Shown: positions 483-24,714 of the stretch, piece after piece
Layout: every line of letters starts with the position of its first letter
Position numbering within the stretch: position 1 is the first letter of the stretch
Origin: an uncultured virus (IMG/VR IMGVR_UViG_3300011339_000925)
Taxonomy: Duplodnaviria > Heunggongvirae > Uroviricota > Caudoviricetes
IMG/VR virus record: IMGVR_UViG_3300011339_000925
Length of the DNA: 24,714 bases
Direction: 5' to 3' (one strand)
Notes under the pieces: generated by a model
What the model saw: only the letters and a program-made list of their open reading frames with translations
Told to the model about the DNA's origin: nothing
Database searches by the model: none
Translations under genes and position numbers: made by a program

Positions 483-3400
483 TTAATCTAGTTCAGTAAA
501 TTTTGTTAATGTTTTTTTCACACCAGAATAGAACGGAATTAATGGTTCTATTTTAGCACCTATTTTTAATCTTTCTCTTTTAGTATCTTCATACAAATAT
601 GGATTTCCTATTGCTGTTTCACCTGCAGCTTTTATTAATTCTAATCCTTGTTTAATAGTAGATATAGAAGCCATAGGAGATGAACCTAATAAATCAATAG
701 TTGATTCAGGATTTACAAAGTAAGTTAAATCTCGATTAAACCTCCATGCAGAGTTAATAATAAAATCTGAACCTATTATATCATCCCATTCATCTTCATC
801 ATCATCATATCCTGCTAATGCTTTTGCTAAAAAGTAAGTTAGTGTTAATGATGCAATTATTTTAAATTCTCTTAATGTTTTTCTAACATTCTCTTCATCT
901 AATCCTTCTATATTAAATTCTTTTAATTTATCAGGATTAAAATGTGCTGTCCATAGTATTTGCAATCCTTTTTTAATTGAACTAGAATTTAAACTACCAT
1001 CAGACATAAATACACTACGAAAATATCCTTTATTAACTCCTAACTCTGATGTGTATTCTTTTGAAAATCTTCTTGTAATACCTTCAAATAACCATGATGC
1101 TTTAAATTGACCTAATAATCTACCATAAAAATTTTTATTTAAAGCTATTGGATCTCTTTTATTATCTCTAGCTAATAAAGTTCTAGATAAAGCATGTATT
1201 TCATTTATTACTTTATTACGAAATTCAGAACCAATTTCAAAAGATTCAGTAAAATCACCATCTAAATATGCTGCTCCATTTTCATCAAATTTAATTGCAT
1301 CAAGTAAAGAATAAAGATTACCAGAAGAATCTGGTATTTTAATAGCATTTAATCTTGCAAATAATAAAGAACCTTTTGATATTTTTTCAGATTGCTTAAA
1401 AAACCAAAAAGCTGTATCAGTCCATTTTCCTTTAGGAGTATCATAACCAAAATTACTTAACAATGGAAAATTATTATACCATTTTTCTAATTCGTCAGGA
1501 TTTTTTAATAACTGATATGTTTTTAAAAACCCTAATTTTAAATCACTATCTGTAAAAAATTTACCACCTGCAGCTTCTACATACATAGAAGAAAAAGATT
1601 GAAATAATTCTGCTACTCCTGAAAAAAAATTAAACCCTAATGATTTAATTGCTGTGTAGTTTATTAAATTATTAGTTAATTTTTTACCAGTAACTACTCT
1701 ACCAGAATCATTTCTTTGTTTTTCTATTGCTTTAAATTCTTCTTCTGTAATTAAGTTTTTTTCTAAATTTTCTTTTGCTTGTTGATAATTTTTTTCTAAT
1801 TCAGGGTCATATAACATTTTTGAAAAAACACCATCTTTATCCTGTCTTTTATCATACATGTGTGCTTCAACAAAATACTTTAATTGTTCAAAAGAATTAT
1901 TTTGTAAAGGAGTTGCTAATTGAGGTTTACCATCTTTAAACTGTATGTTTCCATTAACTACTCTATACTCAGGTTGAGCTTTTACAACATTCATTAATAT
2001 TTTTATATCATCTTCTATTTTTTCTTTTTCTGCTTTATTAATAGAAGCTGTTATAAATTCTTGAAGTATTTTAGGTAAATCATAAGATTTATTTTTAGCA
2101 GATAGTTTTTTATTTAACATATTACCATCTGGTATAGACATCATACTTTCACCTGTTGTAGGGTCTTCAAAATATTCTCTTTTATCTTCAGGTATTTCAG
2201 CTAATAAGTAATATGGAAGATTAGACATTTTTGTTAAAAACGCTACATTTTCTGGTAATTCAGGAATATAAGTTAATGATACACTATGTTTAGTAGAAGG
2301 GTCTTCTAACCTAGCTTTTTTAATTGTATTAGTATAAAAATTATAAAATATTTTTCTAGGATCATTATCATTCATAGCTTGTAGTTCTGTAAACTTACTG
2401 TCTAAGTAAATAGGATTTGTTACATTAAATTTAACATAGCTTTTTGTATATGCTAAAAATCTTTTTGCCCATTCTATTTCATCACTACTTCTTTTAGATT
2501 TAGTAAGTATATTTAAAAAAGTTACAGGATTAGAACTCATTAACATATAATTTATCTTATCGTTAATAATATCTTCTAAATTTCTAGTACCTTCTACAAT
2601 ATTACTTTTTCTTATATTTTTTTCACCTTCAGCTAAATATTGGTTATATGCTTCTTCATCAATTTGAATATTGTGATTATTTCTTAAAAAATTTAAATAA
2701 GTTTCTATTTGTCTATTAGTTACTTTTTCATTATTAAAATTAGGTATAACTTTATACTTATCTGTTATATATTTATGATTAAATTCACTAATAGTATATC
2801 CTGTTAGTTCTCCATTTTCATCTGTTTGCAGCATATAATTAAAAAACTCTTTTGGATTTTTTATATCACCTAGTAATTTTAAAATATTTTTTAACGATGC
2901 AATAAATAAATTTTGTTTTACTTCTATTGTATTTACAATATTTACAATTTTTTGATGTGCGTATCTAATTAAAGGGTTATTAGATGTAGCAGCTGATAGT
3001 ACTTTAGATGTCCATTTATCTTCTTGTCTATATCCACCAATAGGTGCTTTAACTTCATTAGATACTTTTTTTTCAGATGCTTTAGTTATAGCAGTTTCTA
3101 AATCAGATAATTTTTGATTAAACAATTTTATTTGATTTAATAAATCTTCTTCATATCCTTCAGTAGGAAACAAATCTAAATAAGTATTTAAATATTGAGA
3201 AGCTAATACAATATGACCATTTGATAAATAAGCAAATGCTTCATCTATATGTTCAAACGCTTGTTGCAATAAAAAAGGAATAATTTGATTTTCTTCGTAC
3301 TTTAAATCTTTAATTCTTTTTTCTAAAGCTTTTATTCTTTTTCTTAAAATAAATTTATACTCTTCATTTTTTTCTTTAAAATATTGTTTTTTAACAGCTT

Positions 3401-5537
3401 CTAAGTTAGATGTTAACTTATTTAAAGCTCTTTCATAAGGAGTTAATTTTATATCGATAGATAATTCTGAAGTAGTAGGTTGTATATCATAAATATACAT
3501 ACTGGTTTTTCCATCTAAAAAGAGTTTAATGTGATCGTATTTTACATTTTCATCTTGTATAAATTGATTTATAAACTCTTCTTTAGTTATATTATTTTCT
3601 TTTAAATAATCCTCTATATTATATAGTCCATAATTTTTAATATTGTAAACCTGATTACCTATATTATAAGTACCTGATTTTAAATTAACTGGTCGTACAA
3701 TTACAGATTTAATACCTTTATTAATCTTGTCAGCACTTTCTTCTTGAAAAGGAAAATCAAAATCTAATGAATACTCTACATCAGGTGTAGTTGTTTCTTC
3801 AACAATAGGATTATTTTCTACAAACTTTTTAAATCCTTCTATATCTTGTTTAGATGAAAGTATATGAATTTGTTCTGGTTCAAATACTATATAGTCTTTA
3901 TAAAAATCATAATCTGCAACAATAGAATCAATATTTTTATCGGTATACCCTTTAGCTTTTTCGTAAGTTATATCTGATAATACTCTTGCTCTATCGTTAC
4001 TTATATTTTTAAAACTTAATATTTCTCTACTGTCTATTAGAGCATTTACTTTATTTTTACCATAATCTTTTATACGATTTAAATCATTTGTAAAAAAGTA
4101 AGCATTAGCAGTATTAGAAATTTCTCTTTCTAGTACTTTTTTAATATTTTTAGAAAACTTATCAAATTCACCATCAGTACCATGATAAACAATATCTTTT
4201 ACTTTACTATCAGGAAATATAGTAGATAAATATCTTTCATATTGTTCTTGTGTACCTATAGATGCAAGTTGTGGATTTTCTGCAAATAATTCACTAATAC
4301 CTTGTCTTGGAGTTACTGATTGTTTATTTTGTACGTAACTTTTAAATCCTTGTATATCTTGTTTAGAACCTAATATATGAATTTGTTCTGGTTTACCAAC
4401 AGCATAAAGAGATAGTTGACCATCATCATTATGTGTAAGCATTGTATCAAATTCTCCTTTTTCATTTATGTTTCGTATTGAAGTGTTTAGTTCTTTTATT
4501 TTATTCTTTAAAAAATCTTCTTCAACATTCTCCCAACCAGAATTTGATTTTTTAAAATCTTCTTTTTCTTCTTTACTTTTAAAGAATTTAATTTCATCTG
4601 TAACATCTATAAGTTGTAAAGCTAAAGCATTTTCAAAATCACCTTTTTGTAATAAAGAATTAATATTAAGTAATTCTTTATTCAAAGACTCTTTAGAATC
4701 TACATAATAACCAAAATGAGCAAATGGTTGAACTTGAATATTTTTTGAATCTACAAGTAATGCTAGAGTATTTCCATATCCTTCAGCTATATTTTTATCT
4801 TTTGCAAAGTAAAACCCTTTTTGAAATTTAGATTTAGAAACATCAACTGTATCAAACTTTTCATTACTACCATGATAAACAATATCTTTTACTTTACTAT
4901 CAGGAAATATAGTATCAAGATATTGAGAGTATAGTTGTAAAGCTTGTTGTTTTTGTTGTGGGGTTATTTGACTATTCCAATTATACTTATTAATAAGATA
5001 ATCTAAAGCTGTAGCATGGGATGATTCCCCAAGTTCCTTATAATAAACAATAGATTTTTCTTTTAATTTGCCAGATTGTAATACTTCTCTAATAAATTTA
5101 TGTTGTTCAGGTTTAATAGTTGTAATAGGAGATAAAATCCATTCTATATATTTTTCTACGCTTTCTTTAGTAGATTTAGTTCTTATTAAACCTTTTTGTA
5201 TTTCAGATTCTACAGAACTGAATGGGTTTCCAAAATGGTTATTAGTATTATTAACTCTCAAACTAAAAATACCACCAATAGATTTAGCATACTGTATTCC
5301 TGCTATTTGGTAAACAGGTTGAATTACTATATTATCCTTTTTAGTTTTATTACCCAATTTAAGATAAATTTCAGATACTGTTTCTTGTTTATTACTAATC
5401 CCTAAAGCTTCATATACAGCATTAGCAAGAGTTTTATTCTCATTAAATAAGTTATTAATAGCAATTTGCTTATTGAGATATTGAATAAATTGTTCTTCTG
5501 GTATTGATTGCCCTTTATATTTTATTATACAACCCAT
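483..5537 (-). CDS. 1684-aa polyvalent virion cargo/ejection protein: Cys head, DUF4326-like, 2x ART-PolyVal-like, ASCH-like, helical C-terminal ejection-protein domain
   Basis: Long ORF with motifs HFGNPF...SHA, two VYHG[ST]...PEQI units and GIKSVIVR. The C-terminal GRLLGQFKASW...RRF...GYFRS and hydrophobic IIASLTLTYFLAKALAG followed by an acidic run resemble the last large cargo protein of crAss-like phages. Confidence 0.85.
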   Translation of the reverse strand: MGCIIKYKGQSIPEEQFIQYLNKQIAINNLFNENKTLANAVYEALGISNKQETVSEIYLKLGNKTKKDNIVIQPVYQIAGIQYAKSIGGIFSLRVNNTNNHFGNPFSSVESEIQKGLIRTKSTKESVEKYIEWILSPITTIKPEQHKFIREVLQSGKLKEKSIVYYKELGESSHATALDYLINKYNWNSQITPQQKQQALQLYSQYLDTIFPDSKVKDIVYHGSNEKFDTVDVSKSKFQKGFYFAKDKNIAEGYGNTLALLVDSKNIQVQPFAHFGYYVDSKESLNKELLNINSLLQKGDFENALALQLIDVTDEIKFFKSKEEKEDFKKSNSGWENVEEDFLKNKIKELNTSIRNINEKGEFDTMLTHNDDGQLSLYAVGKPEQIHILGSKQDIQGFKSYVQNKQSVTPRQGISELFAENPQLASIGTQEQYERYLSTIFPDSKVKDIVYHGTDGEFDKFSKNIKKVLEREISNTANAYFFTNDLNRIKDYGKNKVNALIDSREILSFKNISNDRARVLSDITYEKAKGYTDKNIDSIVADYDFYKDYIVFEPEQIHILSSKQDIEGFKKFVENNPIVEETTTPDVEYSLDFDFPFQEESADKINKGIKSVIVRPVNLKSGTYNIGNQVYNIKNYGLYNIEDYLKENNITKEEFINQFIQDENVKYDHIKLFLDGKTSMYIYDIQPTTSELSIDIKLTPYERALNKLTSNLEAVKKQYFKEKNEEYKFILRKRIKALEKRIKDLKYEENQIIPFLLQQAFEHIDEAFAYLSNGHIVLASQYLNTYLDLFPTEGYEEDLLNQIKLFNQKLSDLETAITKASEKKVSNEVKAPIGGYRQEDKWTSKVLSAATSNNPLIRYAHQKIVNIVNTIEVKQNLFIASLKNILKLLGDIKNPKEFFNYMLQTDENGELTGYTISEFNHKYITDKYKVIPNFNNEKVTNRQIETYLNFLRNNHNIQIDEEAYNQYLAEGEKNIRKSNIVEGTRNLEDIINDKINYMLMSSNPVTFLNILTKSKRSSDEIEWAKRFLAYTKSYVKFNVTNPIYLDSKFTELQAMNDNDPRKIFYNFYTNTIKKARLEDPSTKHSVSLTYIPELPENVAFLTKMSNLPYYLLAEIPEDKREYFEDPTTGESMMSIPDGNMLNKKLSAKNKSYDLPKILQEFITASINKAEKEKIEDDIKILMNVVKAQPEYRVVNGNIQFKDGKPQLATPLQNNSFEQLKYFVEAHMYDKRQDKDGVFSKMLYDPELEKNYQQAKENLEKNLITEEEFKAIEKQRNDSGRVVTGKKLTNNLINYTAIKSLGFNFFSGVAELFQSFSSMYVEAAGGKFFTDSDLKLGFLKTYQLLKNPDELEKWYNNFPLLSNFGYDTPKGKWTDTAFWFFKQSEKISKGSLLFARLNAIKIPDSSGNLYSLLDAIKFDENGAAYLDGDFTESFEIGSEFRNKVINEIHALSRTLLARDNKRDPIALNKNFYGRLLGQFKASWLFEGITRRFSKEYTSELGVNKGYFRSVFMSDGSLNSSSIKKGLQILWTAHFNPDKLKEFNIEGLDEENVRKTLREFKIIASLTLTYFLAKALAGYDDDEDEWDDIIGSDFIINSAWRFNRDLTYFVNPESTIDLLGSSPMASISTIKQGLELIKAAGETAIGNPYLYEDTKRERLKIGAKIEPLIPFYSGVKKTLTKFTELD
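3477..3760 (-). other. ASCH/PUA-like domain within the 1684-aa protein
   Basis: KINKGIKSVIVR (GIKSVIVR at 3693-3716) fits the ASCH I-x-x-G-x-K-x-x-[ETS]-x-R signature with Ile at the E/T/S position. About 95 aa, bounded by EYSLD and ELSID. Confidence 0.5.
3827..4224 (-). other. ADP-ribosyltransferase-fold (ART-PolyVal-like) cassette 2
   Basis: IVYHGT...AYFFTND...DYG...IDSI...DYIVFEPEQI matches the motif order of H-Y-x ART domains in phage polyvalent proteins. Confidence 0.7.
3827..4393. repeat. Direct repeat pair closing both ART cassettes (3827-3880 and 4340-4393)
   Basis: 48 of 54 nt identical, encoding PEQIHIL[GS]SKQDI[QE]GFK. Offset 513 nt, in frame. Confidence 0.95.
4178..4914. repeat. 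Perfect 47-bp direct repeat opening both ART cassettes (4178-4224 and 4868-4914)
   Basis: taccatgataaacaatatcttttactttactatcaggaaatatagta occurs twice and encodes TIFPDSKVKDIVYHG. Offset 690 nt, in frame. Confidence 0.97.
4340..4914 (-). other. ADP-ribosyltransferase-fold (ART-PolyVal-like) cassette 1
   Basis: IVYHGS...GFYFAKD...AEGYG...EFDTM...LYAVGKPEQI, with a long helical insert. Confidence 0.7.
4976..5330 (-). other. DUF4326-like domain within the 1684-aa protein
   Basis: R...HFGNPF (5220-5237)...KESVEKYIEWI...LKEKSIVYY...SHATAL follows the DUF4326 pattern (R..WGNPF..v..Y..W..L.GK.L.C.C.P..CH..L) but lacks the cysteines. Confidence 0.6.
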
Positions 5538-6258
5538 AGTTTGTTCATTTTAATTAATTCTATTGTACTTACAGAAACACCATATTTAGAAGCTATTTCT
5601 TTCATTTTCATTTTACCAAATAAAATTCTAATTTCATTAGCTTTTTCTTGGTTAAGTTTAGCCCTCGGATGATTCTCACCTTTAAACTTTTCAGATATTT
5701 TCTGTTTAGTTTCTTCTGAAAGATTTTTTCCTAAATGAGATTTTCTAATACTTTCTTTATGTTCATCAGATAGCTTTCTACCCACTCTTTTAGGATTATT
5801 AGTATTACTTTCAGAAATCTTTTGTTTATGTTCTTCTGTTAATACCATTCCTAAATTACTATTTACTTTTTTTCTTTTGTTAAAAGTAGGTTTTAAAATA
5901 TCTATGAAAAATTGTTCAAGTTTTAATAAATATTCTTTAGGACAATTAACTAAAATTTCAAACTGAAAATTATCAATACCATATTTATTACAAGATGCTT
6001 GCAGATGTTTATTAGGATGTTTTGACAGATTCATATTAGCAAAATGAGTTCTTTTTCTGCTATTTAGGTTTACAGCAGAACCAATATAACTATCTTGAGT
6101 TATTATATTTGTTATTTTATATATACCGCTTATGAACATTGTTTTTCTATTAAGTTGTCTTTCAATAGCAAAGATAATAAATTTTCAGCAGAAATACCAG
6201 AATTAGTTAATATTTTTGAATATACAGCATTAGCTAATTCAGGATTATTATTAAATAA
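5412..6258 (-). mobile_element. Putative homing-endonuclease insertion block bounded by direct repeats (5412-5450 and 6220-6258)
   Basis: Identical 15-mer atatacagcattagc at 5412-5426 and 6220-6234, plus attaaataa at 5442-5450 and 6250-6258. Both copies encode LFNxNxxLANAVY, are 808 bp apart and enclose the GIY-YIG gene. Confidence 0.55.
5525..6139 (-). CDS. GIY-YIG homing endonuclease with NUMOD3 repeats and C-terminal HTH
   Basis: SGIYKITN...YIGSA...R...H...LEQFFID...FN catalytic pattern, three [LT]xEEHKQKIS-type NUMOD3 repeats, GENHP, and HTH-like KEIASKYGVSVSTIELIK. Overlaps both neighbours (10 and 13 nt). Confidence 0.95.
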   Translation of the reverse strand: MFISGIYKITNIITQDSYIGSAVNLNSRKRTHFANMNLSKHPNKHLQASCNKYGIDNFQFEILVNCPKEYLLKLEQFFIDILKPTFNKRKKVNSNLGMVLTEEHKQKISESNTNNPKRVGRKLSDEHKESIRKSHLGKNLSEETKQKISEKFKGENHPRAKLNQEKANEIRILFGKMKMKEIASKYGVSVSTIELIKMNKLWVV

Positions 6259-6738
6259 TTCTTCTACACCTGGTTTAATAAGTGTTTCAGGACTTATTGA
6301 ATACTCTAAATCTTTTTGTTCTTGTTCTCTTAAAACTTCATCATCCAAATAAAAATCATTATTTTCATACCATTCTTTTATTTTATTTTCTTCTTCTTTT
6401 TTTAGTTTAGCTATATATTCTTCTTTTGCTTTTTTTTCTTGTTCTTTTGTTAAAAGAGGTTTAGCAACTGTTACAGGATTTTTATTTTCTAATTCCCAAG
6501 TATATAAATCAGCTTGTCCTACTTTAGTAAAATTTATAAAATAACTTGTATTATTTTCTTTATTGTACTCACCAATTTTTTTCTTAATATTAATTTGTTG
6601 TGCAAATGAAACTTCTTTACGATAGTTTTTTAAAACTTGCTTAAGTTTAATATATTTTTTTAAACCTTCTTCAGCTCCATATTTAAAAGCTAAGTCATTT
6701 AATATTTTATTACTTGCACTGTTTAATAAACAATTCAT
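6130..6738 (-). CDS. 202-aa hypothetical virion cargo protein with Cys at both ends (C3, C201); putative adaptor or N-terminal half of a split gene
   Basis: ATGA overlap with the 4999-aa gene. Shares the ELFxxNPxLA / LANAVY linker and EYS[IL] motif with the 1684-aa protein. Confidence 0.8.
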   Translation of the reverse strand: MNCLLNSASNKILNDLAFKYGAEEGLKKYIKLKQVLKNYRKEVSFAQQINIKKKIGEYNKENNTSYFINFTKVGQADLYTWELENKNPVTVAKPLLTKEQEKKAKEEYIAKLKKEEENKIKEWYENNDFYLDDEVLREQEQKDLEYSISPETLIKPGVEELFNNNPELANAVYSKILTNSGISAENLLSLLLKDNLIEKQCS

Positions 6739-9700
6739 TTACATTCTGTTTTAAATTCCTCTTTTTCTTTTAATTCTCTAAATATTTCTCTTTCTTCTTT
6801 AGTTAGATTTTGCATAAAGTCTCTAACACTAGTTTTAAATTCAAAGATACTAGGATCTATTGACTTTTCTGTAACATTTTGAGTAGGATTATAAATTACT
6901 AATTTTTTTCTAGGTCTAGAGACAGCAGTATACATCATTCTATTTACTTGTTCTTTACCTCCTGGAAAAGTCATAATATCATTTTCTAAAACATAAACTG
7001 AATTATAAGTACTTCCTTGAACTTTATGAGAAGTTATAGCATAATTATATCCTATATCTACAATTTTTCCTTTTAATGTATAAAACTCAGACCAAGCAGC
7101 TTTATATTCATTAGTACCTTTAGAAAAAGATTTAGCTTTAACAGCCATTTTACTAAGTACATTTTTAAACAAATCTTTTTCTTCAGGACTTATTGTAGTT
7201 ATTTTTTTAACACCAGTTTTTTTAACATTATTTTCATTTAAATATTCGTATTCAATAGTAAGATTATAAGTAGTAAAATTAACATCTGGAACTACAACAG
7301 GAGTAATTTCTTTAACTTTACCTTTAAATCCATTAGGTAATTCTACCGTACCATTTATTACATACGGACTATTAACTCTAATAAAATCACCTACTACAAA
7401 AGGTTCAGTAGTATTAAATAGTTTTTGTCTAACTAGACTATTAAAATTATCAACAACAGTATTTCTAGCTCCTATAATAATTGCTTGTTTAGGATTATTG
7501 TTATTTGTAATTTCAAAAACATAATCATCTACTAATTTTTTAGAATCTGTTTCATAAAGAACACCACCATCACTAGTAAAATTGTTTCTTCTTTCTTTTA
7601 AAGGATTATCTACACTAGGTTTATTATTTTGGATATTTTCTACATTATTTGCATATATATCTGTAATAGGTAATATAGGACTTTCTGCACCTTGACGCAT
7701 TCTTTCGTTTAGTTCAGCAAAATTTTTATTTTTATCAAGACTCCATATAGGAGAATCTTTACTTTGTCCAGATTCATTTATAGGAGGAATTTGAACATTA
7801 TCCCCCATAAATATAACTTTTGCACTTTTTAATTTTTTATTAAGTATTTTATTGTATAAAAAATCATTTATCATTGAAGCTTCATCAATAATAATATATT
7901 CTGCATTTTCAATAGGATCGCTTTTACCCATTCCTCTAAACTTAGCTTCTTCTTCTTGATTCCTTTCTCTAAAGAATATTTTACCAGTTTTACTATCATA
8001 GTCTGGTACTAACCCTAGCAGTCCTGCTACAGTAGTAGTTTTATATCCAGACATATTTTCTTGAAGAACTTGTCTAGCTTCATCTGAAACAGTTGCTCCT
8101 ATTATACTTGTTTTAGGTAACTTTCCAAGAGCTTTTTTAATAATAGTTGTTTTACCTGTACCTCCTCTACCTTTTAATAAAAATTTATCATCATTACTAT
8201 TTAAAAACTCTTCTATTTTATCAATAGCTTCTTTTTGTCCTTCGTTAGCATATACTCCTGGAAATAACTCATATTTTTTATTTGGTATTTCTAACGTAGT
8301 AGATGTAGTAGAAGTATTTTTTTCTTTTATTTCAACATCTTTTGATACTAAAGAATCGTATTTACTTTGAATATTTTTAGGATTCATAAATTTAAACTCT
8401 CCACCTTTTTGTCTGTATTCAGCACTTATAGGTTTACCATTTTCTAAAGTAAACTTATACTCTGTTCCAAATTCAAAAAAAGATTTAGTTTCTATTGATT
8501 TTTCTGTACTTTCACTACCTGTTTCTGTATTAATTAATCCTGTAACATCGGATTCATCTGCTGTTATTAATTTACCAGTATTAGTTTTAAATTCTATTTG
8601 ATATACTGCAGGAGCAATAATTTTTTCTTCTTTAGTAATATCATTTATAGATATTGTTGGTCCTAAAACCATTTGTACTTTTCCAGTAACTATTGCATCA
8701 AAAGAATTTTTATACTTATAGTATTTAATTTTTACTGTTCTTCCTTTATTTAATTTAGCTAATTTTTCAACATCTGTAATTACTTTTGTAGATGTTTCAG
8801 TTACAATATTAGAAACACCTGATTCTGTAGATTTAAATGTATTAGCATATACATCTCTTATAGCTTGTTTACCTGCTTCTGTTGTATTAGAAGAAGTACC
8901 TATTCCTGCAAAGTTTTTAGTTAATGTAGGAGTATCTATAGATACAAAATCTTGTTTTGTACTATCCCATTTATACCAACCTTGAGAATAAACATTATTA
9001 GCAACTTGATTAAATACATAAGTTGGTTTACCCATTGTAATACCTAATTGTACAGCTACACTAGTACCTCCATTTACTTGTGGTACTAAAGCTTTTTTTG
9101 TTGCTTGTCCTCTAGCTACTGTAATATCTGCACCTTTTGGTATAAGAGAACCAATAGCAAAAATACCATCTGCATTTTTAACTTGAGCATAGTTTCTAAT
9201 TTTTTTTGTATTTCTTGTTGTATGATTAAGTTCTATTCTACCCATAGCTCTTTCAGCATTAGTTACTGCAATTTGAGCTTCTCCTGTTGCAGGTCCTTGT
9301 AAAGCTACAGGTCCTACGTCATTTGTAGCATCAACAGGTTTTACTCCTTTAGCTTGTAATCTAGGATCAGATACAGCACCATCTGATGGTAATAAATAAT
9401 GTTTATTATTTACCATACCAAATTCAGCACCTATTAAATCCCATTCAGCATCATAACCTTTAGCACCACCAGAATGATTAGTATATTCTGCTGGGTTATT
9501 TACAGTAGTAGTTATTACATCAGAAACACCTGGTTCATTGTAATCAGCTATCTGCATAATAGCATCTACAGCTTCATCTAACAATGAACCTTTTTCTATA
9601 TTTAAAGCTTTTTTAATTAATTCTAATAAGTCATTAATTATTTTTTTAATACTCATCCCTTCAGAAGCTAATCTTCTTTGTACTATTTCTGAAGTTAATG

Positions 9701-12700
9701 TTTCTGTTACAAACTCTAATATACTATCAGCTGCATAATATATATTGTAATTATCTTTTATATCTTTAGGTAAACTACTTATTTTTTCTGCACGATATTT
9801 TTTAAATATTTCTAAATTAGCTTTTTCTTTTTCAGTAAAAGAATTTAAATATTTATCATAAACTTTTTTTAATTTTTCGTATTCAGGTGTTTTTTGAAAT
9901 TCAGGATCTTTTAATTTACTAGCAGTAACACCGTGTACTAATTCATGTAGTACATGAGATAATAATAAATCTTTATTATCCTTATATTTTCTTTCTAATC
10001 TAGTTAAATCATATTTTATAGTTTTTGTTAAACTATTATGTTCACCAAATGCTTTATCAAGAGCACCATATTCTATAGTATAATCATTTAATTTATCTTT
10101 TAAATATGTTGCTAACGCAGTATAATACTCATTAGAATTAAGCAATACACCTTCTAATAATTCATTAACTGTAGTTATTGGTTTTCCTTGACTATCTTTA
10201 AATGTAGCTTCTATTATATCTAAACTATTTTGAGGAGCACTACTAGATTTTATAGATTGAGTAAGGGTAGAAACTTGTACAGGAACTTTATTATTAGGTA
10301 TGATGCTCCTTTTATTTTTTTCTTCAAATTTATATTCTACAATAGACGCACTTTCTAATCCTAATCTATCAATAATTTTATAATGTAATTTATTATTCTT
10401 AGTATTTTCTAATTGATACAAATCTGTTTCAGAAGTATTAAAATTATAAATCGCAACAAACCTTAAATAATTTTGAATATTGTTATTTAAATCTGTTTTA
10501 GATACAAATTTTTTAGCTATTTCAGAATCTGTATTAATAAATATTTCTGTTAATACGTTTGTATCAGTATTGGGTATAGCTACATATTTTTTTTCAACAT
10601 CTTTATTAGAAGCATTTTTTATTATACCTGTTATAGATTTAGCTAATTGAGGATTATGTTGAAAATACTGCTTTTCAAATTCTTTAAAATATGTTGGTGA
10701 TGATAAATTAGTTTCTATACTTTTTAATATACTTGATAAATTTATAGCTTGATAATATTCAAAAGGTATATATTTAAAAAAGTTAGAAACACCAAATAAA
10801 TTAGCATTAAAATATAAAGAATATGCAGCTAAGTCTAATCCAAATTGTCTTAACTCTAAATCTTTTTGATTAGTTTTCATTAAATCTAACCAAGCATTTG
10901 TAATTTGATTTTCTAAAACTTCTGTTTTAACAAAACTATTACCCATAGTTAAAAGATTATCTTGGTTAATAGTAATTCTTCTTAACAAATTATTATTAGG
11001 ATATTTTTCTTTTAATTCTGTAAACCTATTTTTTAAATTTATCCATAAATCTGCTTTGTATGCATTTATATCTTTACCATCAGCTATTCGTTCTTGTATA
11101 AGTGGGTGAGAGTACACATAACTAAATAATCCATTATAAATAGAATTAGTGTCATCATCAGTTAATGAATCTGTTTTACCTAATGTTTCTGCAATTAAAC
11201 TTTCTATTGTTGAATATGCAGTTTTACTATATTGATATATATTTGAATAAAGATTAACAGCAAACTTTGGTATTTTAATATATTCACCTACAACAGTATT
11301 TTTAAGTTTAGAAACATTACCTATAGCATCTTCTATTAATTTAGATTGTTTTACAACTAGCTGTATTGTTTCAATATAATTTTTAGGTAATCCTTTAGAG
11401 TCTATAATCATAGCTCCCTGAACTGAATTAATACTTGTAGTTAATTCTTCATAATGTTTAAATGCTAATAAAATTGCTACTTGTTTTTCTTTTTGTTTAT
11501 CACTTAATTCTTCAAAAGATTTATTTAACATAGATTTATATTCTTCTAATGTAAATCCATCTTTACGAAGGTCTAATAATTTTTTTGAATCTTTATTAAC
11601 ATACTTTAAAAGTAGTTCCATTGTTTTCTTTTCTTTTTTATCATAATCATATTCAGTATCAAACATAGATTTTAACTTATCTAGTTCTTTGTAATACTCT
11701 TTAAGAATAGGTTGATTAATAAAATTTATTACCCAATTATGATTAAAACCAGTTTGAATAATTGTTAATCCTACTCCAAGGTTATAATTATTAATACCTC
11801 CTAATCCTAACAATTTTTCTTTAGCATTATCCACAGAAGCTGCTAACCACTCAGATATTCTTTCTGATATTACTCCACCATCAAATCCAAAAATCTTATC
11901 TAATCTCCATGCAGAAGTAGATGTAGATTGATTTTCTGAATAAAGGTCGTTAGTGTATTCATTAATTCTATTTTCTTTAACATTTTCAGTATAATAATTA
12001 CCTTTTTCATCTTTAAACATTACTCCTGTTCCTTTAATAAATAGATTAGCTTCTTGAGCCATTGCATGAAACGTATTAGCATTTGCTCCTACACCAACAC
12101 CTGTTTTACCTGCTTTATTATCAAAAAATGTATCTCTTTGATAATTAGGGTCATAAAATCCTAACCATTCTTTATTAAGTGAGTTTCCATATTTAGAATT
12201 AAATTCTGTAATTGTATTTTGTAAAGAATCAAAACCTTGAGGAGTTACAACACTATTAAAAATATCCGCACTTAATAATACTTCTTGATATATATCAACT
12301 ATTTTATTAACATCAGAATCACGTTTAACTAAAAATCTTTTTCTACTTTTTCTTAATTCTTTAATTAATTCTTCTCTATCAGCTATTTGTTTTTGTATTT
12401 TTTGATCTGCTACCATATTTAATAAAAATATTTCATTTATTAAAGTATTTAAATCGTCAGATAATTCTATTGCTCTTTCTTCATTAGGTGGATTAATTTC
12501 ATCATTTAATTCATTATAAATATCTTGAACATTATTTTGAAGTTTAGCAATAATAGGTTTATTATAAGGATTGCTTAATGCTAATTTTTGACTTAAATTT
12601 TCTGATACTAAAGCTATTTCTTCTGCACTAGGTGGTTCTATTACAACACTTGCTTCATAATTGTACATAAACAATTTATCTACGTCATAGTCACTACCCA

Positions 12701-15700
12701 TTTGAATAGCAAGTTCAGAAGGAACTATAATAGTATCTCCCATAGATTCAGGTAAAAACCCTGCTACTTCAAAAACCATCATTGATTTTCTACCTTCTGT
12801 TGGAATACGAAAACCAATTGATGTTAGTAATTCTTTAGGTAGTTTTTCTAAATCTATGTACCCATCTTTAATAAAATCTGTTATTTTTAATTTTTTACCT
12901 TTATGTGTAAAGTAAAAAGGAACATATACTTGAGCTCTTTCAGAAAAATCTTTTCCTTTTCCTTTTTTAATGTAATTTAATTTACCTTTTTTATTTTCAG
13001 CAGAAGTATATATAATACTATTTCTTTCTTCTTCAGTTAATGCTTCTTCACTTTTTATATTATTATTTTTACCAAAAGATTTATAAGTAAGAACTTCAGA
13101 AACCTGTACATAAGATTTACCACTTATTTTAGTACGCATTACAGAATTAGTAATAAGTGCTTGTAATACTGGTTGTATTTTACCTATGTTAGGATTAAAT
13201 ATTAATGGAAATAAGAAATTACCTTTTCCATCAGTTTTTAACATTTTTTTAGCGTTTTCAGTAAAATCTCTTCTTGCAGATTCATTTTCTAAAACTTGTG
13301 CTAATTTTTCTACATTTTTAATTACATAATTACCTTCAGCATCAGGAAACATATCAGTTTTTTCTAATAATTCTGATATTAATTTAGCTTTAGATTTTTC
13401 AACTAATCTTTTTTGAGCTTCTATGTAATCTTGTTTAACTTCTGCTACTGTTCTACCACTAGATAGTACGGTGTTATTAGCTAAATTAACAAATAACAAC
13501 TTCATAGCTTGTGTTACTTGACGAATAGTATTTTTACTTTCATCATAAGGAATGTTTAATTGAATGTGATAACCACTTCTTTCTAAAGTTATAGGAGATA
13601 AAAATGCTTCATCATTAACATTACCATTATTATCAAACAAAGTAGTTACTTGTTTATTACCTATTTTAACAGCAGATGGAAAAGTTAATCTATCTATATT
13701 TTGAGCTATCATATTTTCCCTTACTTTTTTCATTGGACCATCTTTAATTACAGCTGGTACTAAAGGAACAGATGATGTTTTAATATAAAACTCTTCTATT
13801 ATTCCATTTTCAAGATTAGAAAAAACTTGAACTGGTTTTCTAGGTTGTAATAATGCTTTAGAATCTAAATTTTTTATTTGTTCTTCTGTTAAATTTTCAA
13901 AAGGTAATACTCCTTCATCAGTTTCATTTTCTTTACCAAAATACAAATACAAATCAGAATTAGGATCATTATATAACATTTGATAATGCTCTGGGTCATA
14001 TAACATCATACCTCTTAAAACATCTGATGTACTAATTTCTCCATGTGCATATCTATCATTTAAATGTTCCCATACTGTTGTAAATTCTTGAGCATCAGTT
14101 AATTTTTCATTTTTTAAATCTTTGTAAAACTTTTGAATTTCTTTTTCATATTGTTCAATATTAGAAGCATCTACATTCATGTCATTGACTATAGCAACTT
14201 TATAAGTAGATTTTTTCCAAAATCCTCTTCTACCTTGAGCTAATAATCTAGCATTTCTTTTACTTAAATTATCAAATGTTGATAAAATTCCTTGAAGTAC
14301 TTGATCTTTAGTTAAAAGTTTATCTGTAGATGGTATTTTAGATTGTTGTGCAGGGTCACCTAGTATTAAATTTGTTTCAATTAATACTGTCATATTTTTG
14401 TATACAAAATCTATTACTGCGTGTTTAGTACGAGCATCTAAATCAGTACCATATTTTTTAATTAAATTTTCTTTATACGCTTCATCCATAATGTTTGTAT
14501 AATAAGTACCATCTTTCTTTTTACTTATAATACCAAAATCTTCCCAAGAATTTAATGTTTTTAAAACTATAGAGTTAAATCTTTGAAGTATTTTTTTCTG
14601 AATTAAATTTTTAACATCATCATTTAAAGTTAATGTAGATTTTAATCTGTAAAGATTATTCTTTTTGTCGTACAATGCTTTTAAAATTTTAACAGAATCT
14701 TCATCAGTATTTTCTGCTAATATTTCTGCATTTAAAAACTCATAATAATAAAAGTATTCTCCTGCACCTTTTTTAGTTTCAGTAGAATCTGCATTTTTTA
14801 ATTTTAATTTTTCTGATATTTTTTGTCTAATTTGATATTGTTGAATTTTAGCTACTTCCATATTGAAGTAGTTATAAAGATTCTTCTTTATAACATTAGA
14901 CATTCCCCATTTCTTTTCAGTTTCATTATACAATAAAATGTTTTCTAAATTAGGAGTAATGTTCTCAAACATTAAATTGGTAGATTTATCTGATAAAGTT
15001 TCAGCTTTTATAAGTCCTATATTCTCACCATTTTTATTTATTATTTGAGAATTTAACATTCTCATTATTTCAAATTCTATAGGATTAGAATCTTTAAAAA
15101 ACTTAGGAGCTTCATTTTTAAATCTAAACCCTCTATCTACAATTACTTTAATATTTTGCAGCTGAGCTCTTAAATTTTTATATACTAAAGTATTTTTTAA
15201 ATCAGACCATTTTGATTTAAACCAATTTAATTTTTCAGTTATAGGTTTAGAATTAGTAAATGAACTATATTGTACACCTGATACTCTATAAGTACCTGCT
15301 ATAGCTCTAGAACTTGTTAAAAGAATTGCTTTAGAAATATTTTGAAATATAGTACCTTCATTTATAAAAAGGTCTTGCAAGGTACTAGATGTCAAAAATC
15401 CTTTTTTAAGTAATAAATCTAAAAATACTTCTTTAAGAAATTTATTGTCATTTCTAGTAGCTGATGTAAATCCTTCTCTTTTTTGTAAATATTGAGTAAG
15501 ACCTATTTTATTTATATTCATACCAAGAGCATTAAAAATACTTTGTAGCTCTGATAATCCTTCATTAGTAATTATATTTTTTTCAAAATAAGAAGTATTA
15601 GCTAAAAGATTTTCAACACTTTTAATTATACTTTGAATATAAGATTTATTAATAACATTATTTTCTTGATTATTAATTAATTGTCTAGTAGATAATCTAG

Positions 15701-18700
15701 GATTGTTGTACATTTTTTGTACAAATTCACCTTTTATTAAATTAGCTCCTGTAGAATTATCTGATTCATTTTTAAAAACTCTATATTTTTGTTTAGCTAA
15801 TGTAGCTACTACTGTAATAGGATTTTCTTTTTCAGCAGAAAAAACTTGATAAAATTGTCTTCTTAATTGTTTATTAGGACTGTTATTTAAAATACTAGCA
15901 ACTTTATTTAAATAAGGACTTTTTGATTCAGCTAACTTGTCTACCATTAATTTATAAGAAGCTGCTGTGTTAGTGTATACTGAAGTTGTTAATTCTTCTA
16001 CAATTTGAGTAAATACAAAGTCTATAGGAACATAAACATCCATTCCTATACTATTTGTTTTTACAGTACCATTATTATTATAATCAGGAATAAATGATAA
16101 CATTCTTCTAATTTCATCATACATAGAATCTAATCTATTTTCTTTAGAAGATGCTTCATCTACATATTGTTCTGCACTATCTTCTGTATCAGCAAAAGAT
16201 TCAAATATTCCTTCTTTATTTTTTGAAAAATTTAAATTAGTTAAAACTGCTACTGCTCTATTACTATACTCATCAAACTTTTCTAATACATTTAAAATAT
16301 TATTTTTTAAAAAATTAGCTTTTTCTTGCTGTGTAGGATTTAATCCTGTAGCAGATTTTAATCTTTCTACTGCTTTTATTAAATTATTTTCTACATCTTT
16401 TATATTACCTGATAGTAGTTTATATGCTAATGAATCTATAATTGCAGCTTCTTCTTCTAATGCTAACTCGGGGTTTATTAAAATTGTAGAAGAAGATTCT
16501 ATATCAATAGATTGTTCTGCACTACCTTCTTCATCTATATCAAAATTAATTCCTAAATCTTTTAAATCTTCTTTTAAACTTTCTAAATTTTGGTTTTCAA
16601 TAATTTCTTTTACTTCTTCAGCAGTAGCTATTTTACCTGTTGCAGAACTTTCTTTTTTAACAGCTTCTTGATTAACTACTTCAAAATAAAACGTAGGTTG
16701 AAACGCATATAATCTACCATAAGCTTTAGTTTCTTTTGTAGCTATGTTAGTTTTTAAAAGTTGTCCTTTTACAATTAATTCTTGATAAGTAAATTCAGAA
16801 TTAGGTAAAGTAGATTCGTTTCTAAGTTCTTTATTATTTAGATTAAAAGATAAGTTATTAATAAGGTCTTCAACTTTTTCTAATAAAGTTTCATTAGTAT
16901 CTGTACTATCTATTTTAATTACTTTACCTGCATGAATTATTTGAGGTTCACCATTTTTAACAGATAGATTTACAATATGTTTACCAGTAGTTTTACCATC
17001 CTTTGTTAAATAAACAAACTTATCAACCCAACTATCATCAGATATTTTTCCTTGAGTTAAAAATTGTAGTAGTTCATTAGAAATGTTATCTCTAATTTCT
17101 TTAATTACTTCTTTATTTTCTTTTTCTTCTATTTTAAAATTACCAAATGTAACACCTATTGGTATTGAAATTGTAGATACTTCATTTTTATGAGTAGCTT
17201 GAGGTGCTAATAAATACACACGACCATTAACACCTGCATTTTTTTCATTAGGTAATACTTCTAATTGACCTTTAAATTCTCCATTTACACCTTGATATTT
17301 ACCATTTATATAAGTATAAATATTTTCTAACATATCCGCTTCAATAGGAAAATAATCTTTATTAAACTCTATTTTAGCTCTACTTACATTTTTTATTTTA
17401 ACTGTTAAAGGTTTAGCTCCTAGTGCTGCAAAATGATTTCTTATATCTCTAATTTTTTGCTTTTCAACTTCTAAATCAGCACTTGGTGCTATATTATTTA
17501 TATTAATGTAATTTATTTTATGAACAAACCCTCTATCTTCTAATACTCCAGTAATTTTATTTTTAGACTGTAGTTTTAAATCCATAGAATCTAAATACTC
17601 ATCTGTACCAGGAATACCTACAGGAGTATTAGCTAAAACTACTTCTAACTCATCTTCAACTTTTATATCATTACTATGTAGTATATCATATTCATCATTA
17701 TTTATAAATTGAACTTTACCATCTTTATATAATGTTTGTCTATTATTTACTGGTGATGTTTCAACCATTTTATAAGAAACAGCAAATCCTGAAATTAATT
17801 GATCAGTAATAGCTTCTACTACTTTTTCATTTTCTTCTTCTATATCAGTAATAGATCTAACTGTACTTAATATACTTCTATTAAAATCTTCTGCTGAAAT
17901 AGTTTGAAAATTAAATGTGGAATTATAAATTTTAATAACTTGATAAGCTAACGAAGCACTATATGGGTCTGATGAATTAAAGTTTTTTATATTATCTTGA
18001 AAATATTTAACAGTTAAAGGTTTTCTTTCACTAGATGATTTTTTTAAAGATTTATTTACATCTTTTAAAACAGCTGTATAAAGTCTTGCAACATCTTCTG
18101 AAACTCTAAAAGAATATTTATTAAATAAAGCACTAACTTTTGATTCTATTTGTTGAGGAGTATCATTATCAAAATCAAGAGTATTTTCAACATCATTTGA
18201 AAAATTCTTTTTAGTTTCTTCAGGTAAATCGTCAAATTCTCTAAACAATTCTTCAAATTGATCACCTACTGTTTCTTCTTTATTTTCTTCTGTTGTAGAT
18301 TTAACAACAGGTGCTTCGGCAACAGGTATTGTTTCTAAAGCATCTAGTTCTGCAGTAGGTTCAACAATAGGTTCTATCAGTTTTACATCTACAACTTGTG
18401 AGACAGGTACTTTTGCAGTATCTCCACTTTTTTCTTCATCGACTTTCCTAACAGTTGATTTTGAAGTTTTAGAGGTAGATTTTCTTGAAGTTTTTGTAAG
18501 TTCATTTTTTTCTATTTTAGCTTTAACTGTAACTTTTTTACTAGGATTAATTTTAAGATTTTTATTATTTTTAATTTTTTGTTTTATAATAGCTTCAATT
18601 TCTTTTAGTTCTTTATACTGAATACCTTTAACAGTAGTTTTAATATATTCATTAATTTCATTAGTTTCAAATCCTATTTTTTTTAAAGATTTTTTTTCTA

Positions 18701-23877: not shown

Positions 23878-24714
23878 CTATTTTTTCTTTTTATTAAAGA
23901 GTTTAATAGAACTTTTAATTTTACCTCCGTACATTTTTGTAACATCAGGATCGCCAGCTTTTAAAATAGCTCTTTGTTCAGGTGTCAACTTAGTTGCATC
24001 TTGAGCTTGTTGTTCTAAAGCACCTAAATACAATAGTTTTCTACCATACACACCAGTGTCCATATCTTTTTCTAGCACTTTTAATTTACGACCTTCTAAA
24101 TTAAATTGAGCTTTATCTCTTCTTTGCGCTTGTTGAATATCAGAAAGATTACCATATATATTTGATTGACCTGTTATTTGAGCCATATCTCTATTATAGA
24201 ATCTATCAGCATTTTCAACAGCAGTTCTAGCGTTTTGTGCAGCTATTGTATTGTTTAATATATTTTGCTGATTTTGTATATCTGTATTTTGTATAGTTTC
24301 GTCTAAATTAATTTTATTTTTAGCACTTAACATTTGTCCATACATATTAGCTCTAGCAGCTGCTGCTGTAGCAGAATTAGTTAAATCTCTACTTACTAAT
24401 TGATTAGCTTCTCTTCTTTGTACATCAGCTTCATTTCTTAAAGCATCATAATTAACTTTATTTAAATTTACATTAGGATTTAATGCTTGTTGAGGTGGAG
24501 CCATTTTACCAAACCTTCTATTAAGTTGCATATTTTTAGCTATACCAAGATAAGGCATTAAATCTTGACCTTTAGATAATATATTACCTACCCTAGACCA
24601 ATCAAATTTTTGACGATCAGGTAAAACTATTTTAGGATCTTCAAATGTGTCCATAAATTTTCCATTTACAGGTGGTAAACCATCTGTATCATCTAAACCA
24701 TTTCCAGCTTTAAA
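23878..24714 (-). CDS. 5'-truncated probable virion cargo/internal protein (N/Q/A-rich helical, C-terminal MYGG plus basic tail)
   Basis: The frame stays open upstream of the listed Met at 24654 to the window edge (FKAGNGLDDTDGLPPVNGKF-M...), so the true start is probably outside. No Cys. Ends KMYGGKIKSSIKLFNKKKK-TAG. Confidence 0.8.
   Translation of the reverse strand, partial: FKAGNGLDDTDGLPPVNGKFMDTFEDPKIVLPDRQKFDWSRVGNILSKGQDLMPYLGIAKNMQLNRRFGKMAPPQQALNPNVNLNKVNYDALRNEADVQRREANQLVSRDLTNSATAAAARANMYGQMLSAKNKINLDETIQNTDIQNQQNILNNTIAAQNARTAVENADRFYNRDMAQITGQSNIYGNLSDIQQAQRRDKAQFNLEGRKLKVLEKDMDTGVYGRKLLYLGALEQQAQDATKLTPEQRAILKAGDPDVTKMYGGKIKSSIKLFNKKKK

Follow-up and report, generated by a model that had tools for sequence, protein, structure and literature searches.

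Paired terminal cysteines in the virion RNA-polymerase cargo proteins of crassviruses point to a probable disulfide clasp, with one cysteine pair carried by a homing-endonuclease cassette

Introduction

The closest described counterpart of the system treated here is found in the virion of cyanopodophage A4, where cryo-electron microscopy located a disulfide between Cys1715 of gp27 and Cys5 of gp26 in the pre-ejectosome, with the C-terminal helix of gp27 entering a cleft of gp26 (PNAS 2025, PMC12002296). The sequence record of this phage (Anabaena phage A-4L) gives gp27 as a protein of 1717 amino acids (aa) whose sole cysteine is Cys1715, and gp26 as a protein of 1114 aa whose sole cysteine is Cys5, within the head MSKHC. 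A comparable layout is present in a 24,714-nucleotide (nt) stretch of DNA from an uncultured virus of the class Caudoviricetes (IMG/VR record IMGVR_UViG_3300011339_000925), here called the window, a term that always means the whole stretch that was analysed. Three of its genes, for proteins of 4999, 202 and 1684 aa, form what we call a chain: their few cysteines stand at the termini turned towards the neighbouring protein in gene order, as a “tail” cysteine at a C-terminus and a “head” cysteine at the following N-terminus. As in A4, a sole cysteine near the C-terminus of one protein is followed by a sole cysteine near the N-terminus of the next gene's protein, and the A4 head MSKHC resembles the heads MSKRC, MAKKC and MSKTC of the crassviruses crAss001 and DAC15. 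A4 differs in having one link between two proteins, in a 42-kb Saffermanviridae phage with no RNA polymerase, whereas the window has two links, and its relatives up to five, in an RNA-polymerase cargo block; the bond was seen in A4, and here we infer it from genes. An earlier note on this stretch, which had proposed that the ejected proteins are coupled head to tail through disulfides, was not aware of any description of such a system, a statement that the gp27–gp26 bond of A4 corrects.

A second group of relevant proteins is found in the Schitoviridae, for whose ejection proteins a suppression of cysteine has been published, homologues of DEV gp71 containing 0.00075% cysteine against 0.865% for the proteome (PMC11445570). 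The giant ejected proteins of this family (N4 gp50-52; DEV gp71-73) are almost free of cysteine, a feature shared by the interiors of the crassvirus chain proteins (15 cysteines in 50,106 aa), and our count for N4 (0 cysteines in each of gp50, gp51 and gp52) agrees with what the earlier note had stated. They differ in having no terminal cysteines whatever, whereas the crassvirus proteins retain those at the facing termini. Among the crassviruses themselves, gp47, gp49 and gp50 of crAss001 were identified as virion proteins by mass spectrometry (PMC10172136), gp67-gp66-gp65 of Cellulophaga phage phi14:2 were likewise found in virions (phi14:2 record notes, phi14:2 preprint), and disulfides have been reported in the tail of crAss001 (PMC10172136). 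Full-text literature searches returned no description of the terminal cysteines of crassviruses, and the word “cysteine” has 0 occurrences in the available text of PMC10172136 and of the phi14:2 preprint.

Results

Cysteines at the facing termini of three window proteins

The open reading frames (ORFs) of the window were translated and their cysteine positions counted; every window gene lies on the minus strand. The first chain member (6735–21734) encodes the 4999-aa protein, which ends in KTECK before the stop and has as its sole cysteine the penultimate residue, Cys4998 (codon at 6741–6743). The second member (6130–6738), whose start overlaps the stop of the first in the sequence ATGA, encodes the 202-aa protein and contains two cysteines, Cys3 (6730–6732) in the head MNC and Cys201 (6136–6138) in the terminal KQCS. 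The last member (483–5537) encodes the 1684-aa protein, which begins with MGC, has Cys3 (5529–5531) as its only cysteine and carries none at its tail. The three proteins thus contain 4 cysteines in 6885 residues, all within three residues of the facing termini. If cysteines were placed uniformly in each protein, the joint chance of these positions would be 4.0e-4 x 2.9e-4 x 1.8e-3 = 2.1e-10, and cysteine content is ordinary in the remaining ORFs of the 55.9-kb viral contig (G000, the genome to which the window belongs). The terminal-cysteine observation is confirmed and lies far beyond chance; the counts and coordinates of the earlier note were all exact on re-translation.

The same rule in relatives and reference phages

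Relatives were reached through the 202-aa protein, through the endonuclease described below and through an alignment of heads, and 35–56 kb around the chain were read in six further viral genomes. A cysteine was counted as head or tail when it lay within 8 residues of the N-terminus or the C-terminus, respectively. The seven environmental genomes contain 28 chain proteins of 50,106 aa in total, with 54 cysteines, which divide into 20 head, 19 tail and 15 internal residues; the chain members were chosen manually from lists of ORFs, and these counts therefore carry some risk of circularity. Both cysteines are present at 19 of the 21 junctions, and the two ends of the chain are consistently bare, the head cysteine being absent from all first members (7/7) and the tail cysteine from all last members (7/7). 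The 111 other non-endonuclease ORFs, used as a control, contain 496 cysteines in 39,859 aa, and a cysteine lies among the first 8 residues of 15 of them and among the last 8 of 9.

Eleven reference phages (crAss001, DAC15, IAS, crAss002, phi14:2, cr4_1, cr50_1, cr55_1, cr118_1, cr116_1 and Leptolyngbya phage Lbo-JY46) gave the same picture, with both cysteines at 16/16 junctions, no head cysteine in the 9/9 first members examined and no tail cysteine in 11/11 last members. For this count gp33 of crAss002 was read from an internal MSC (annotated residues 33–35), gp055 and gp056 of IAS, which contain ambiguous residues, were taken as one protein, and gp051 and gp049 of cr116_1 were taken as two exons. 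The crAss001 chain is composed of gp47 (2341 aa, sole cysteine 2339), gp50 (cysteines 5, 1334 and 2404 of 2412) and gp49 (1349 aa, sole cysteine 5), and that of phi14:2 of g067 (1797 aa, the sole cysteine being the final residue), g066 (cysteines 3 and 2179 of 2180) and g065 (sole cysteine 3). Homologues of the last member in a large protein collection, the window's own protein included, have Cys3 in 11/11 cases and no other cysteine in 9/11.

Two comparisons bear on the level at which this rule operates. The gene for the first member lies, in crAss001 and DAC15, on the strand that does not carry the two other chain genes, and the cysteines are present all the same; the 3′ end of the first gene is therefore not beside the 5′ end of its partner, and stop/start overlaps or endonuclease scars are excluded as an explanation of the rule. 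As far as gene comparison can tell, the rule is one that acts on the proteins and not on the DNA of the junction. The second comparison concerns fusions. The 4999-aa protein of the window spans the homologues of phi14:2 g067, g066 and part of g065, and it has no cysteine at the boundaries that carry C1797/C3 and C2179/C3 in phi14:2. Similarly, a 1543-aa protein in genome G006 and a 5498-aa protein in G003 include a region that G004 encodes on its own as a piece of 257 aa, and the junction cysteines are missing there. The earlier note had proposed looking across the Crassvirales for the co-occurrence of a tail cysteine with a head cysteine in the next gene and for the loss of both in fusions, and had read the bare outer ends of the window chain as what a linear chain predicts; the first is borne out by the 19/21 and 16/16 junctions, the second by the absence of cysteines at the fused boundaries of the 4999-aa protein and, at the second junction, of the two unsplit relatives described below (P0002 and P0003), and the third by the first and last members in every examined case. 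The tail motif that it had drawn from the two window tails (hh-xx-L-x5-[IF]-x3-C-x-stop) did not hold up beyond endonuclease-associated tails, since endonuclease-free junctions keep the cysteine alone. A constant C-x3-C spacing across junctions was also considered and rejected; it was seen in the first five, the loci L086, L087 and L093 span C-x2-C to C-x4-C, and the spacings in genome G005 and in crAss001 are larger.

The pieces of L015 and L017 that had appeared to be without a tail cysteine proved to contain one in their interior, where the frame runs on into an extension. Four loci (L015 864–2501, L017 422–1840, L092 3–1166 and L100 1007–3004, minus strand) show no stop after the tail cysteine and continue into a Gly-rich stretch of the form C(T)GGGKLKA...PTHK.GG..., and no Pfam family was found in the extensions. 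Neighbouring or fused modules begin with ..AEHNELIL.NSHGD.., and those of L090 include a YkuD L,D-transpeptidase domain (E 7.9e-6); they may be modules for cell-wall degradation that were inserted at junctions. In the 155-kb genome G001, which has terminal repeats, the genes flanking the cysteine-poor block (96174–99634 and 147567–148337) are very rich in cysteine, with 18 residues in 403 aa and 24 in 256 aa, a sharp contrast within one structural module.

A homing-endonuclease cassette at the second junction

The 202-aa and 1684-aa genes are not adjacent, because a free-standing gene for a GIY-YIG homing endonuclease of 204 aa (5525–6139, minus strand), overlooked in the earlier note, sits between them and overlaps both. 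Its product matches PF01541 GIY-YIG (3.1e-7), PF07460 NUMOD3 (2e-12) and the homing-endonuclease family PHROG_314 (1.3e-29). The endonuclease ATG lies within the CAATGT that encodes Gln-Cys201 of the 202-aa protein, its stop overlaps ATGGGTTGT, which encodes Met-Gly-Cys of the 1684-aa gene, and its frame differs from those of both neighbouring genes. A group I intron around the endonuclease was rejected, with no match to Rfam Intron_gpI at E ≤ 1 in 4500–7500. An intein or split intein at the junction was likewise rejected, as Pfam gave no support for one in the 202-aa protein or in the extensions found after tail cysteines, and the tail, endonuclease and head frames all differ; a sub-threshold Intein_splicing match (20.8 bits against a cut-off of 35.8) lies far from the junction, at residues 729–953 of the 1684-aa protein.

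The endonuclease gene belongs to a larger mobile unit (5385–6287, minus strand) composed of a tail-coding stretch, the endonuclease gene and a head-coding stretch. This unit is 90.3% identical by blastn, over 905 aligned columns, to a cassette in the otherwise unrelated phage genome G001. A blastp comparison finds nothing in common between the chain proteins of the two genomes beyond three stretches: the tail, at 90% identity over 50 aa, the endonuclease, at 91%, and the head, at 76% over 51 aa. Similar tail-endonuclease-head units are found in L014-L017 and L086-L095, the cassette itself being present in L015-L017. The insertion point can be read from P0002 and P0003, the closest relatives of the last member, which are unsplit at the second junction and have Cys3 only. 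Both start with MSCLL..., like the 202-aa protein, to which they are 47% identical over residues 1–190 (P0003) and 49% over residues 1–170 (P0002). At the point of insertion P0003 continues uninterrupted through ...SLANAVYESLGF... (ANAVYESLGF), and the tail and head stretches are absent. The order in the window is ...ELANAVY followed by the tail SKILTNSG...IEKQCS and its stop, then the endonuclease gene, then the head MGCIIKYKG...NKTLANAVY, the host frame being taken up again at EALGISNKQ. The insert is bounded by a 15-nt direct repeat, GCTAATGCTGTATAT, which codes for ANAVY, with its upstream copy at 6220–6234 and its downstream copy, after which the host frame resumes (...ANAVY/EALGISNKQ), at 5412–5426, both on the minus strand. 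The insert is an 808-nt endonuclease cassette with a 29-aa tail that ends in a cysteine and a 42-aa head that starts with one. Because P0002 and P0003 have Cys3 only, both cysteines of the second junction arrived with the cassette, and, as judged from these genomes, the second split is shown to have been made by a mobile GIY-YIG element bringing its own tail and head cysteines.

The nearest known parallel is the nrdA-a/mobE/nrdA-b arrangement of Aeh1, in which tails that arose with the insertion of an endonuclease assemble the two halves of the protein (Crona et al. 2010, PMC3045599). In both cases a free-standing endonuclease splits a gene that is whole in relatives, and the insertion gives one half a C-terminal tail and the other an N-terminal head that they did not have before. 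The window differs in that its tail ends and its head starts with a cysteine, such cysteine pairs being already in use in the system, and in that a unit of this type recurs at 76–91% identity in unrelated genomes; the role of the tail is here a predicted one.

Further mobile endonuclease genes were observed in the replication module of G000, outside the window (L110 3515–5678 and 12769–13554). There, a DNA polymerase fragment of 457 aa is directly followed by an endonuclease ORF of 245 aa (PHROG_4645), and a LAGLIDADG endonuclease ORF of 261 aa lies near helicase and primase genes.

Identity of the chain proteins

Residues 6–478 of the 4999-aa protein match phi14:2 g067 (E 2e-9) and crAss001 gp47 (E 1.8e-11) by blastp, residues 2650–3803 match the phi14:2 virion RNA polymerase g066 (E 5.7e-43 over 1214 aligned columns) and residues 3897–4068 match phi14:2 g065 (E 3.7e-6). 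The polymerase region contains the sequence DYDVD (residues 3015–3019, at 12678–12692 on the minus strand, found as MGSDYDVDK by regular-expression search), and the motif GSD[FY]D[VI]DK, searched in the same manner, occurs once per chain in all 7 chains. A motif of the DFDxD type is catalytic in crAss-like virion RNA polymerases (Drobysheva preprint). The C-terminal part, residues 4446–4983, is a helicase of superfamily 1 (SF1) according to Pfam (AAA_30/PIF1/UvrD_C_2) and PHROG (Dda-like helicase). By homology, the 4999-aa protein is thus a fusion of a gp67/gp47-like N-terminal region, a crassvirus virion RNA polymerase and a C-terminal SF1 helicase. A Dda/PIF1-like helicase fused to the polymerase block (window 6786–8399; PHROG_325, 3.2e-70) was not seen at this position in the reference phages; gp059 of cr50_1 is, however, annotated as “DNA helicase”.

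The 1684-aa protein contains an ART-PolyVal domain at residues 219–386 (window 4380–4883; Pfam 1.7e-11, 45.5 bits against a cut-off of 31.2), and its residues 1287–1676 match phi14:2 g065 (E 3e-9) and crAss001 gp49 (E 2.7e-6) by blastp. No Pfam or PHROG family was found for the 202-aa protein, and neither blastn of window 4500–8500 nor tblastn of the 202-aa protein against the phage collection gave a match to a cultured phage. In G000 the chain is followed by genes for an endolysin, a tail protein and a virion structural protein. In the relative G002 a muzzle protein (crAss_MUZ, PF25731, E 4.5e-27) is encoded upstream of the chain, and the window's contig stops before any muzzle gene. The homology to phi14:2 and crAss001 proteins, together with the DYDVD motif, identifies the three window genes as a crassvirus virion RNA-polymerase cargo block, in a phage known here from its genes alone. 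It shares with the phi14:2 gp67-gp66-gp65 and crAss001 gp47-gp50-gp49 blocks their homology, the DFDxD-type motif and the terminal-cysteine rule. It differs from phi14:2 in that gp67-like, gp66-like and part of the gp65-like sequence are fused with a helicase in one protein of 4999 aa, and in that its splits fall elsewhere, within the gp65-like part.

The ART-PolyVal domain also relates the 1684-aa protein to the polyvalent proteins of phages and conjugative elements, giant multi-domain proteins that are thought to be delivered with DNA; GNAT, peptidase M15 and YkuD modules are carried by relatives. The literature search returned no statement on terminal cysteines in polyvalent proteins. Short stretches of the 1684-aa gene (for example 4340–4393, 3818–3893, 4154–4274 and 4842–4976) match several places per related genome at 73–98% DNA identity, a module of the ART-PolyVal type is repeated inside the protein (window 3800–5000, and in relatives), and a recurrent module-start motif (..SNPELANAVYEALGF.. 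/ ..QYLQYLSTIFKTSKVKDIVYHG..) marks points of cassette insertion.

Two further ORFs of the window lie 5′ of the chain. The first (21738–23753), which is context and not a chain member, encodes a protein of 671 aa with 0 cysteines that occupies the place of the crAss001 cargo proteins gp45 and gp46 and has no Pfam or PHROG match; its equivalents 5′ of the chain are cysteine-free in G001-G004 and G006. The second is an open ORF of 278 aa (23878–24714), also with 0 cysteines.

Two apparent exceptions to the rule

Two reference phages that appeared as exceptions were rejected as such. In the uncultured phage cr116_1 (L121, NC_055882, 13450–14500) the virion RNA-polymerase gene is annotated as gp051 and gp049, with gp050 between them. 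The first ends in ...GSDFDKSYVEIKMC and a stop and the second starts with MVDKEYLM; when joined they give GSDFD|VDKEYLM, the catalytic motif. The intervening gp050 is a LAGLIDADG endonuclease, with halves of an Rfam group I intron on both sides (E 6e-7 and E 3e-6, neither of them reaching the gathering score). We take the two ORFs as exons of a single polymerase gene that a group I intron interrupts within the DFDxD motif, and by its sequence this looks like an intron in the active-site codons of the polymerase. In Bacteroides phage crAss002 the annotated start of gp33 (L115, MN917146, 8163–8270) lies 32 codons upstream of an in-frame MSCTPSNPKLDKLL, which resembles the heads of other chain members, such as MFCPNLSDPKIKEQF; judging from this resemblance, the true start is probably the internal methionine. 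The terminal-cysteine rule may thus serve as an aid to annotation, having exposed a start that was likely mis-called and a polymerase intron.

Discussion

A probable disulfide clasp between cargo proteins

The reading that we favour, with a probability of about 0.72, is that the terminal cysteines form an inter-protein disulfide clasp that ties the RNA-polymerase cargo pieces into one covalent unit in the virion. The cargo proteins would be packaged inside the capsid and passed into the host cell. The chain proteins are purged of cysteine except for one residue per facing terminus, placed 0–8 positions from the end, and the interior cysteines would have been removed so that only the clasp bonds form. 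Inside the virion, the tail cysteine of member n would bond with the head cysteine of member n+1, joining the window proteins of 4999, 202 and 1684 aa, in this order, into a single covalent unit, and the clasp would fix a 1:1 stoichiometry and the order for packaging and ejection before opening in the reducing cytoplasm. Because such a clasp would need little beyond two terminal cysteines, the genes would tolerate splitting at many sites, fission by cassettes included. From these comparisons we infer the formation of the bond in crassviruses, its purpose and its reduction on entry; that about 6900 aa are threaded through the tail as one chain and released by reduction is speculation. Of what the earlier note had proposed, tail-to-head pairing in chain order is well supported by the comparison of genomes and by the A4 precedent, and the alignment of the two tails is the part that is not conserved.

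Several points weigh against this reading. The rule itself has exceptions: both failing junctions are found in G003 (665 / endonuclease / 362 / 1305), the cysteine is not always terminal, being followed in L015, L017, L092 and G003 by an in-frame extension of 66 to ~400 aa, and stubs of up to 7–8 residues lie past the cysteines in G005 and in gp50 of crAss001. Some members have several internal cysteines, among them the 2351-aa protein of G006 with 6, cr116_1 gp051 with 8 and IAS gp056 with 9, its tail cysteine being the tenth. Oxidation is not assured in the anoxic gut, the habitat of many crassviruses. The complex predicted for the cassette tail (50 aa, alignment of 13) with the head (60 aa, alignment of 15) counts in part for the clasp and in part against it: its score of 0.45, compared with 0.01 for the best of 3 controls, is graded “weak support”, and no contacts were reported. 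The mark is reached by 116/157 solved complexes and 2/215 mismatched pairs, a score of 0.60 or under accounting for only 18/157 of the former and for both mismatched pairs. Agreement between runs is at least 91% of contacts, and the partner has a predicted local distance difference test (pLDDT) value of at least 63. A cargo-protein disulfide has been observed in no crassvirus, and the crAss001 paper, in the parts available, lists disulfides for tail and portal-vertex proteins only, the cargo not being resolved (PMC10172136). The A4 precedent is also imperfect: its bond is in a folded, five-fold (pentameric) pre-ejectosome and not in a thread, and blastp gave no match at E ≤ 0.01 between A4 gp26 or gp27 and the proteins of the window, its relatives or the reference crassviruses. 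The resemblance to A4 is, by analogy, one of mechanism and not of family.

Alternative explanations of the terminal cysteines

The alternative that survives best, itself improbable, is that the paired cysteines are joined through a bridging metal ion or through other thiol chemistry, such as a thioester or persulfide, and not through a disulfide. The logic of the pairing is silent on bond type, anoxic habitats disfavour oxidation, and acidic residues often stand 1–3 positions before the tail cysteine (..IEKQC, ..IDRVC, ..TEC). Two thiolates alone, however, make a poor metal site, and no His, Asp or Glu partner is conserved at every junction; moreover, the sole solved case, A4, is a disulfide, and crAss001 virions contain disulfides.

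It is less probable still that the cysteines make homotypic links, intramolecular head-tail links or links to a common capsid or portal partner, in place of a chain of different proteins in gene order. Which cysteines pair with which cannot be fixed by sequence alone, and middle members, with one cysteine per end, could in principle cyclise. Such links, however, do not predict that the head cysteine should be missing from first members (7/7 and 9/9) or the tail cysteine from last members (7/7 and 11/11), nor that each additional split should gain one tail and one head cysteine, and the pairing in the A4 structure is tail-to-head.

We give slightly lower odds, of a very small order, to the view that the terminal cysteines are by-products of the junctions, either scars of endonuclease cassettes or effects of stop/start overlaps, with no role in the protein. 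The overlaps of the endonuclease gene with the Cys201 codon on one side and the Cys3 codon of the 1684-aa gene on the other are what this view expects, the cysteines of the second junction did come with the cassette, and endonuclease genes are found at 10/21 junctions in the seven genomes. The rule nevertheless holds in crAss001 and DAC15 despite the opposite strands, and at endonuclease-free junctions whose flanking sequence is unrelated. Phages with no endonuclease between their chain genes (phi14:2, the Suoliviridae phages and Lbo-JY46) keep it as well, and in a second type of cassette (G001 128335–129122) the cysteine codons lie outside the coding region of the endonuclease.

Just as improbable is an origin of the cysteines as parts or remnants of processing sites, that is, polyprotein cleavage residues or intein vestiges (Cys1, Cys+1), since, for all that the C-x-stop / endonuclease / M-x-C layout looks superficially like a split intein with a free-standing endonuclease and that a Gly-rich extension follows the tail cysteine in four loci, fused forms lack cysteines at the fused boundaries, which is the opposite of what a cleavage site predicts, no intein or Hint domain is found at the junctions, neither the 202-aa protein nor the extensions have a Pfam match, and the endonuclease frame differs from both of its neighbours.

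Implications for crassviruses and their mobile elements

The chemistry of the proposed disulfide clasp is not new, given A4; what is new is the proposed multi-link chain in the RNA-polymerase cargo of crassviruses, with one of its links supplied by a cassette. A broader version of the same reading is tentative and, taken as a whole, we hold it to be rather unlikely: the clasp would be a portable and largely sequence-independent means of re-joining proteins, the whole RNA-polymerase cargo would enter as one covalently chained thread, and GIY-YIG cassettes would have captured a tail-cysteine/head-cysteine pair and could so cut giant genes anywhere without killing the phage. If true, mobile elements would have a third way, in addition to introns and inteins, of neutralising their own insertion, and the range of 2 to 6 pieces among relatives would be explained.

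No phages of the human gut are more abundant than crassviruses, and the manner in which ~700 kDa of RNA polymerase and accessory proteins are packed and delivered is a question left by the structural papers. Phages of marine, freshwater, cyanobacterial and gut origin all follow the rule, which is lost in fusions, and it predicts which proteins would be covalently tied together and in what order. At the second junction of the window, it suggests that a module for re-joining the split protein can travel with the homing endonuclease itself.

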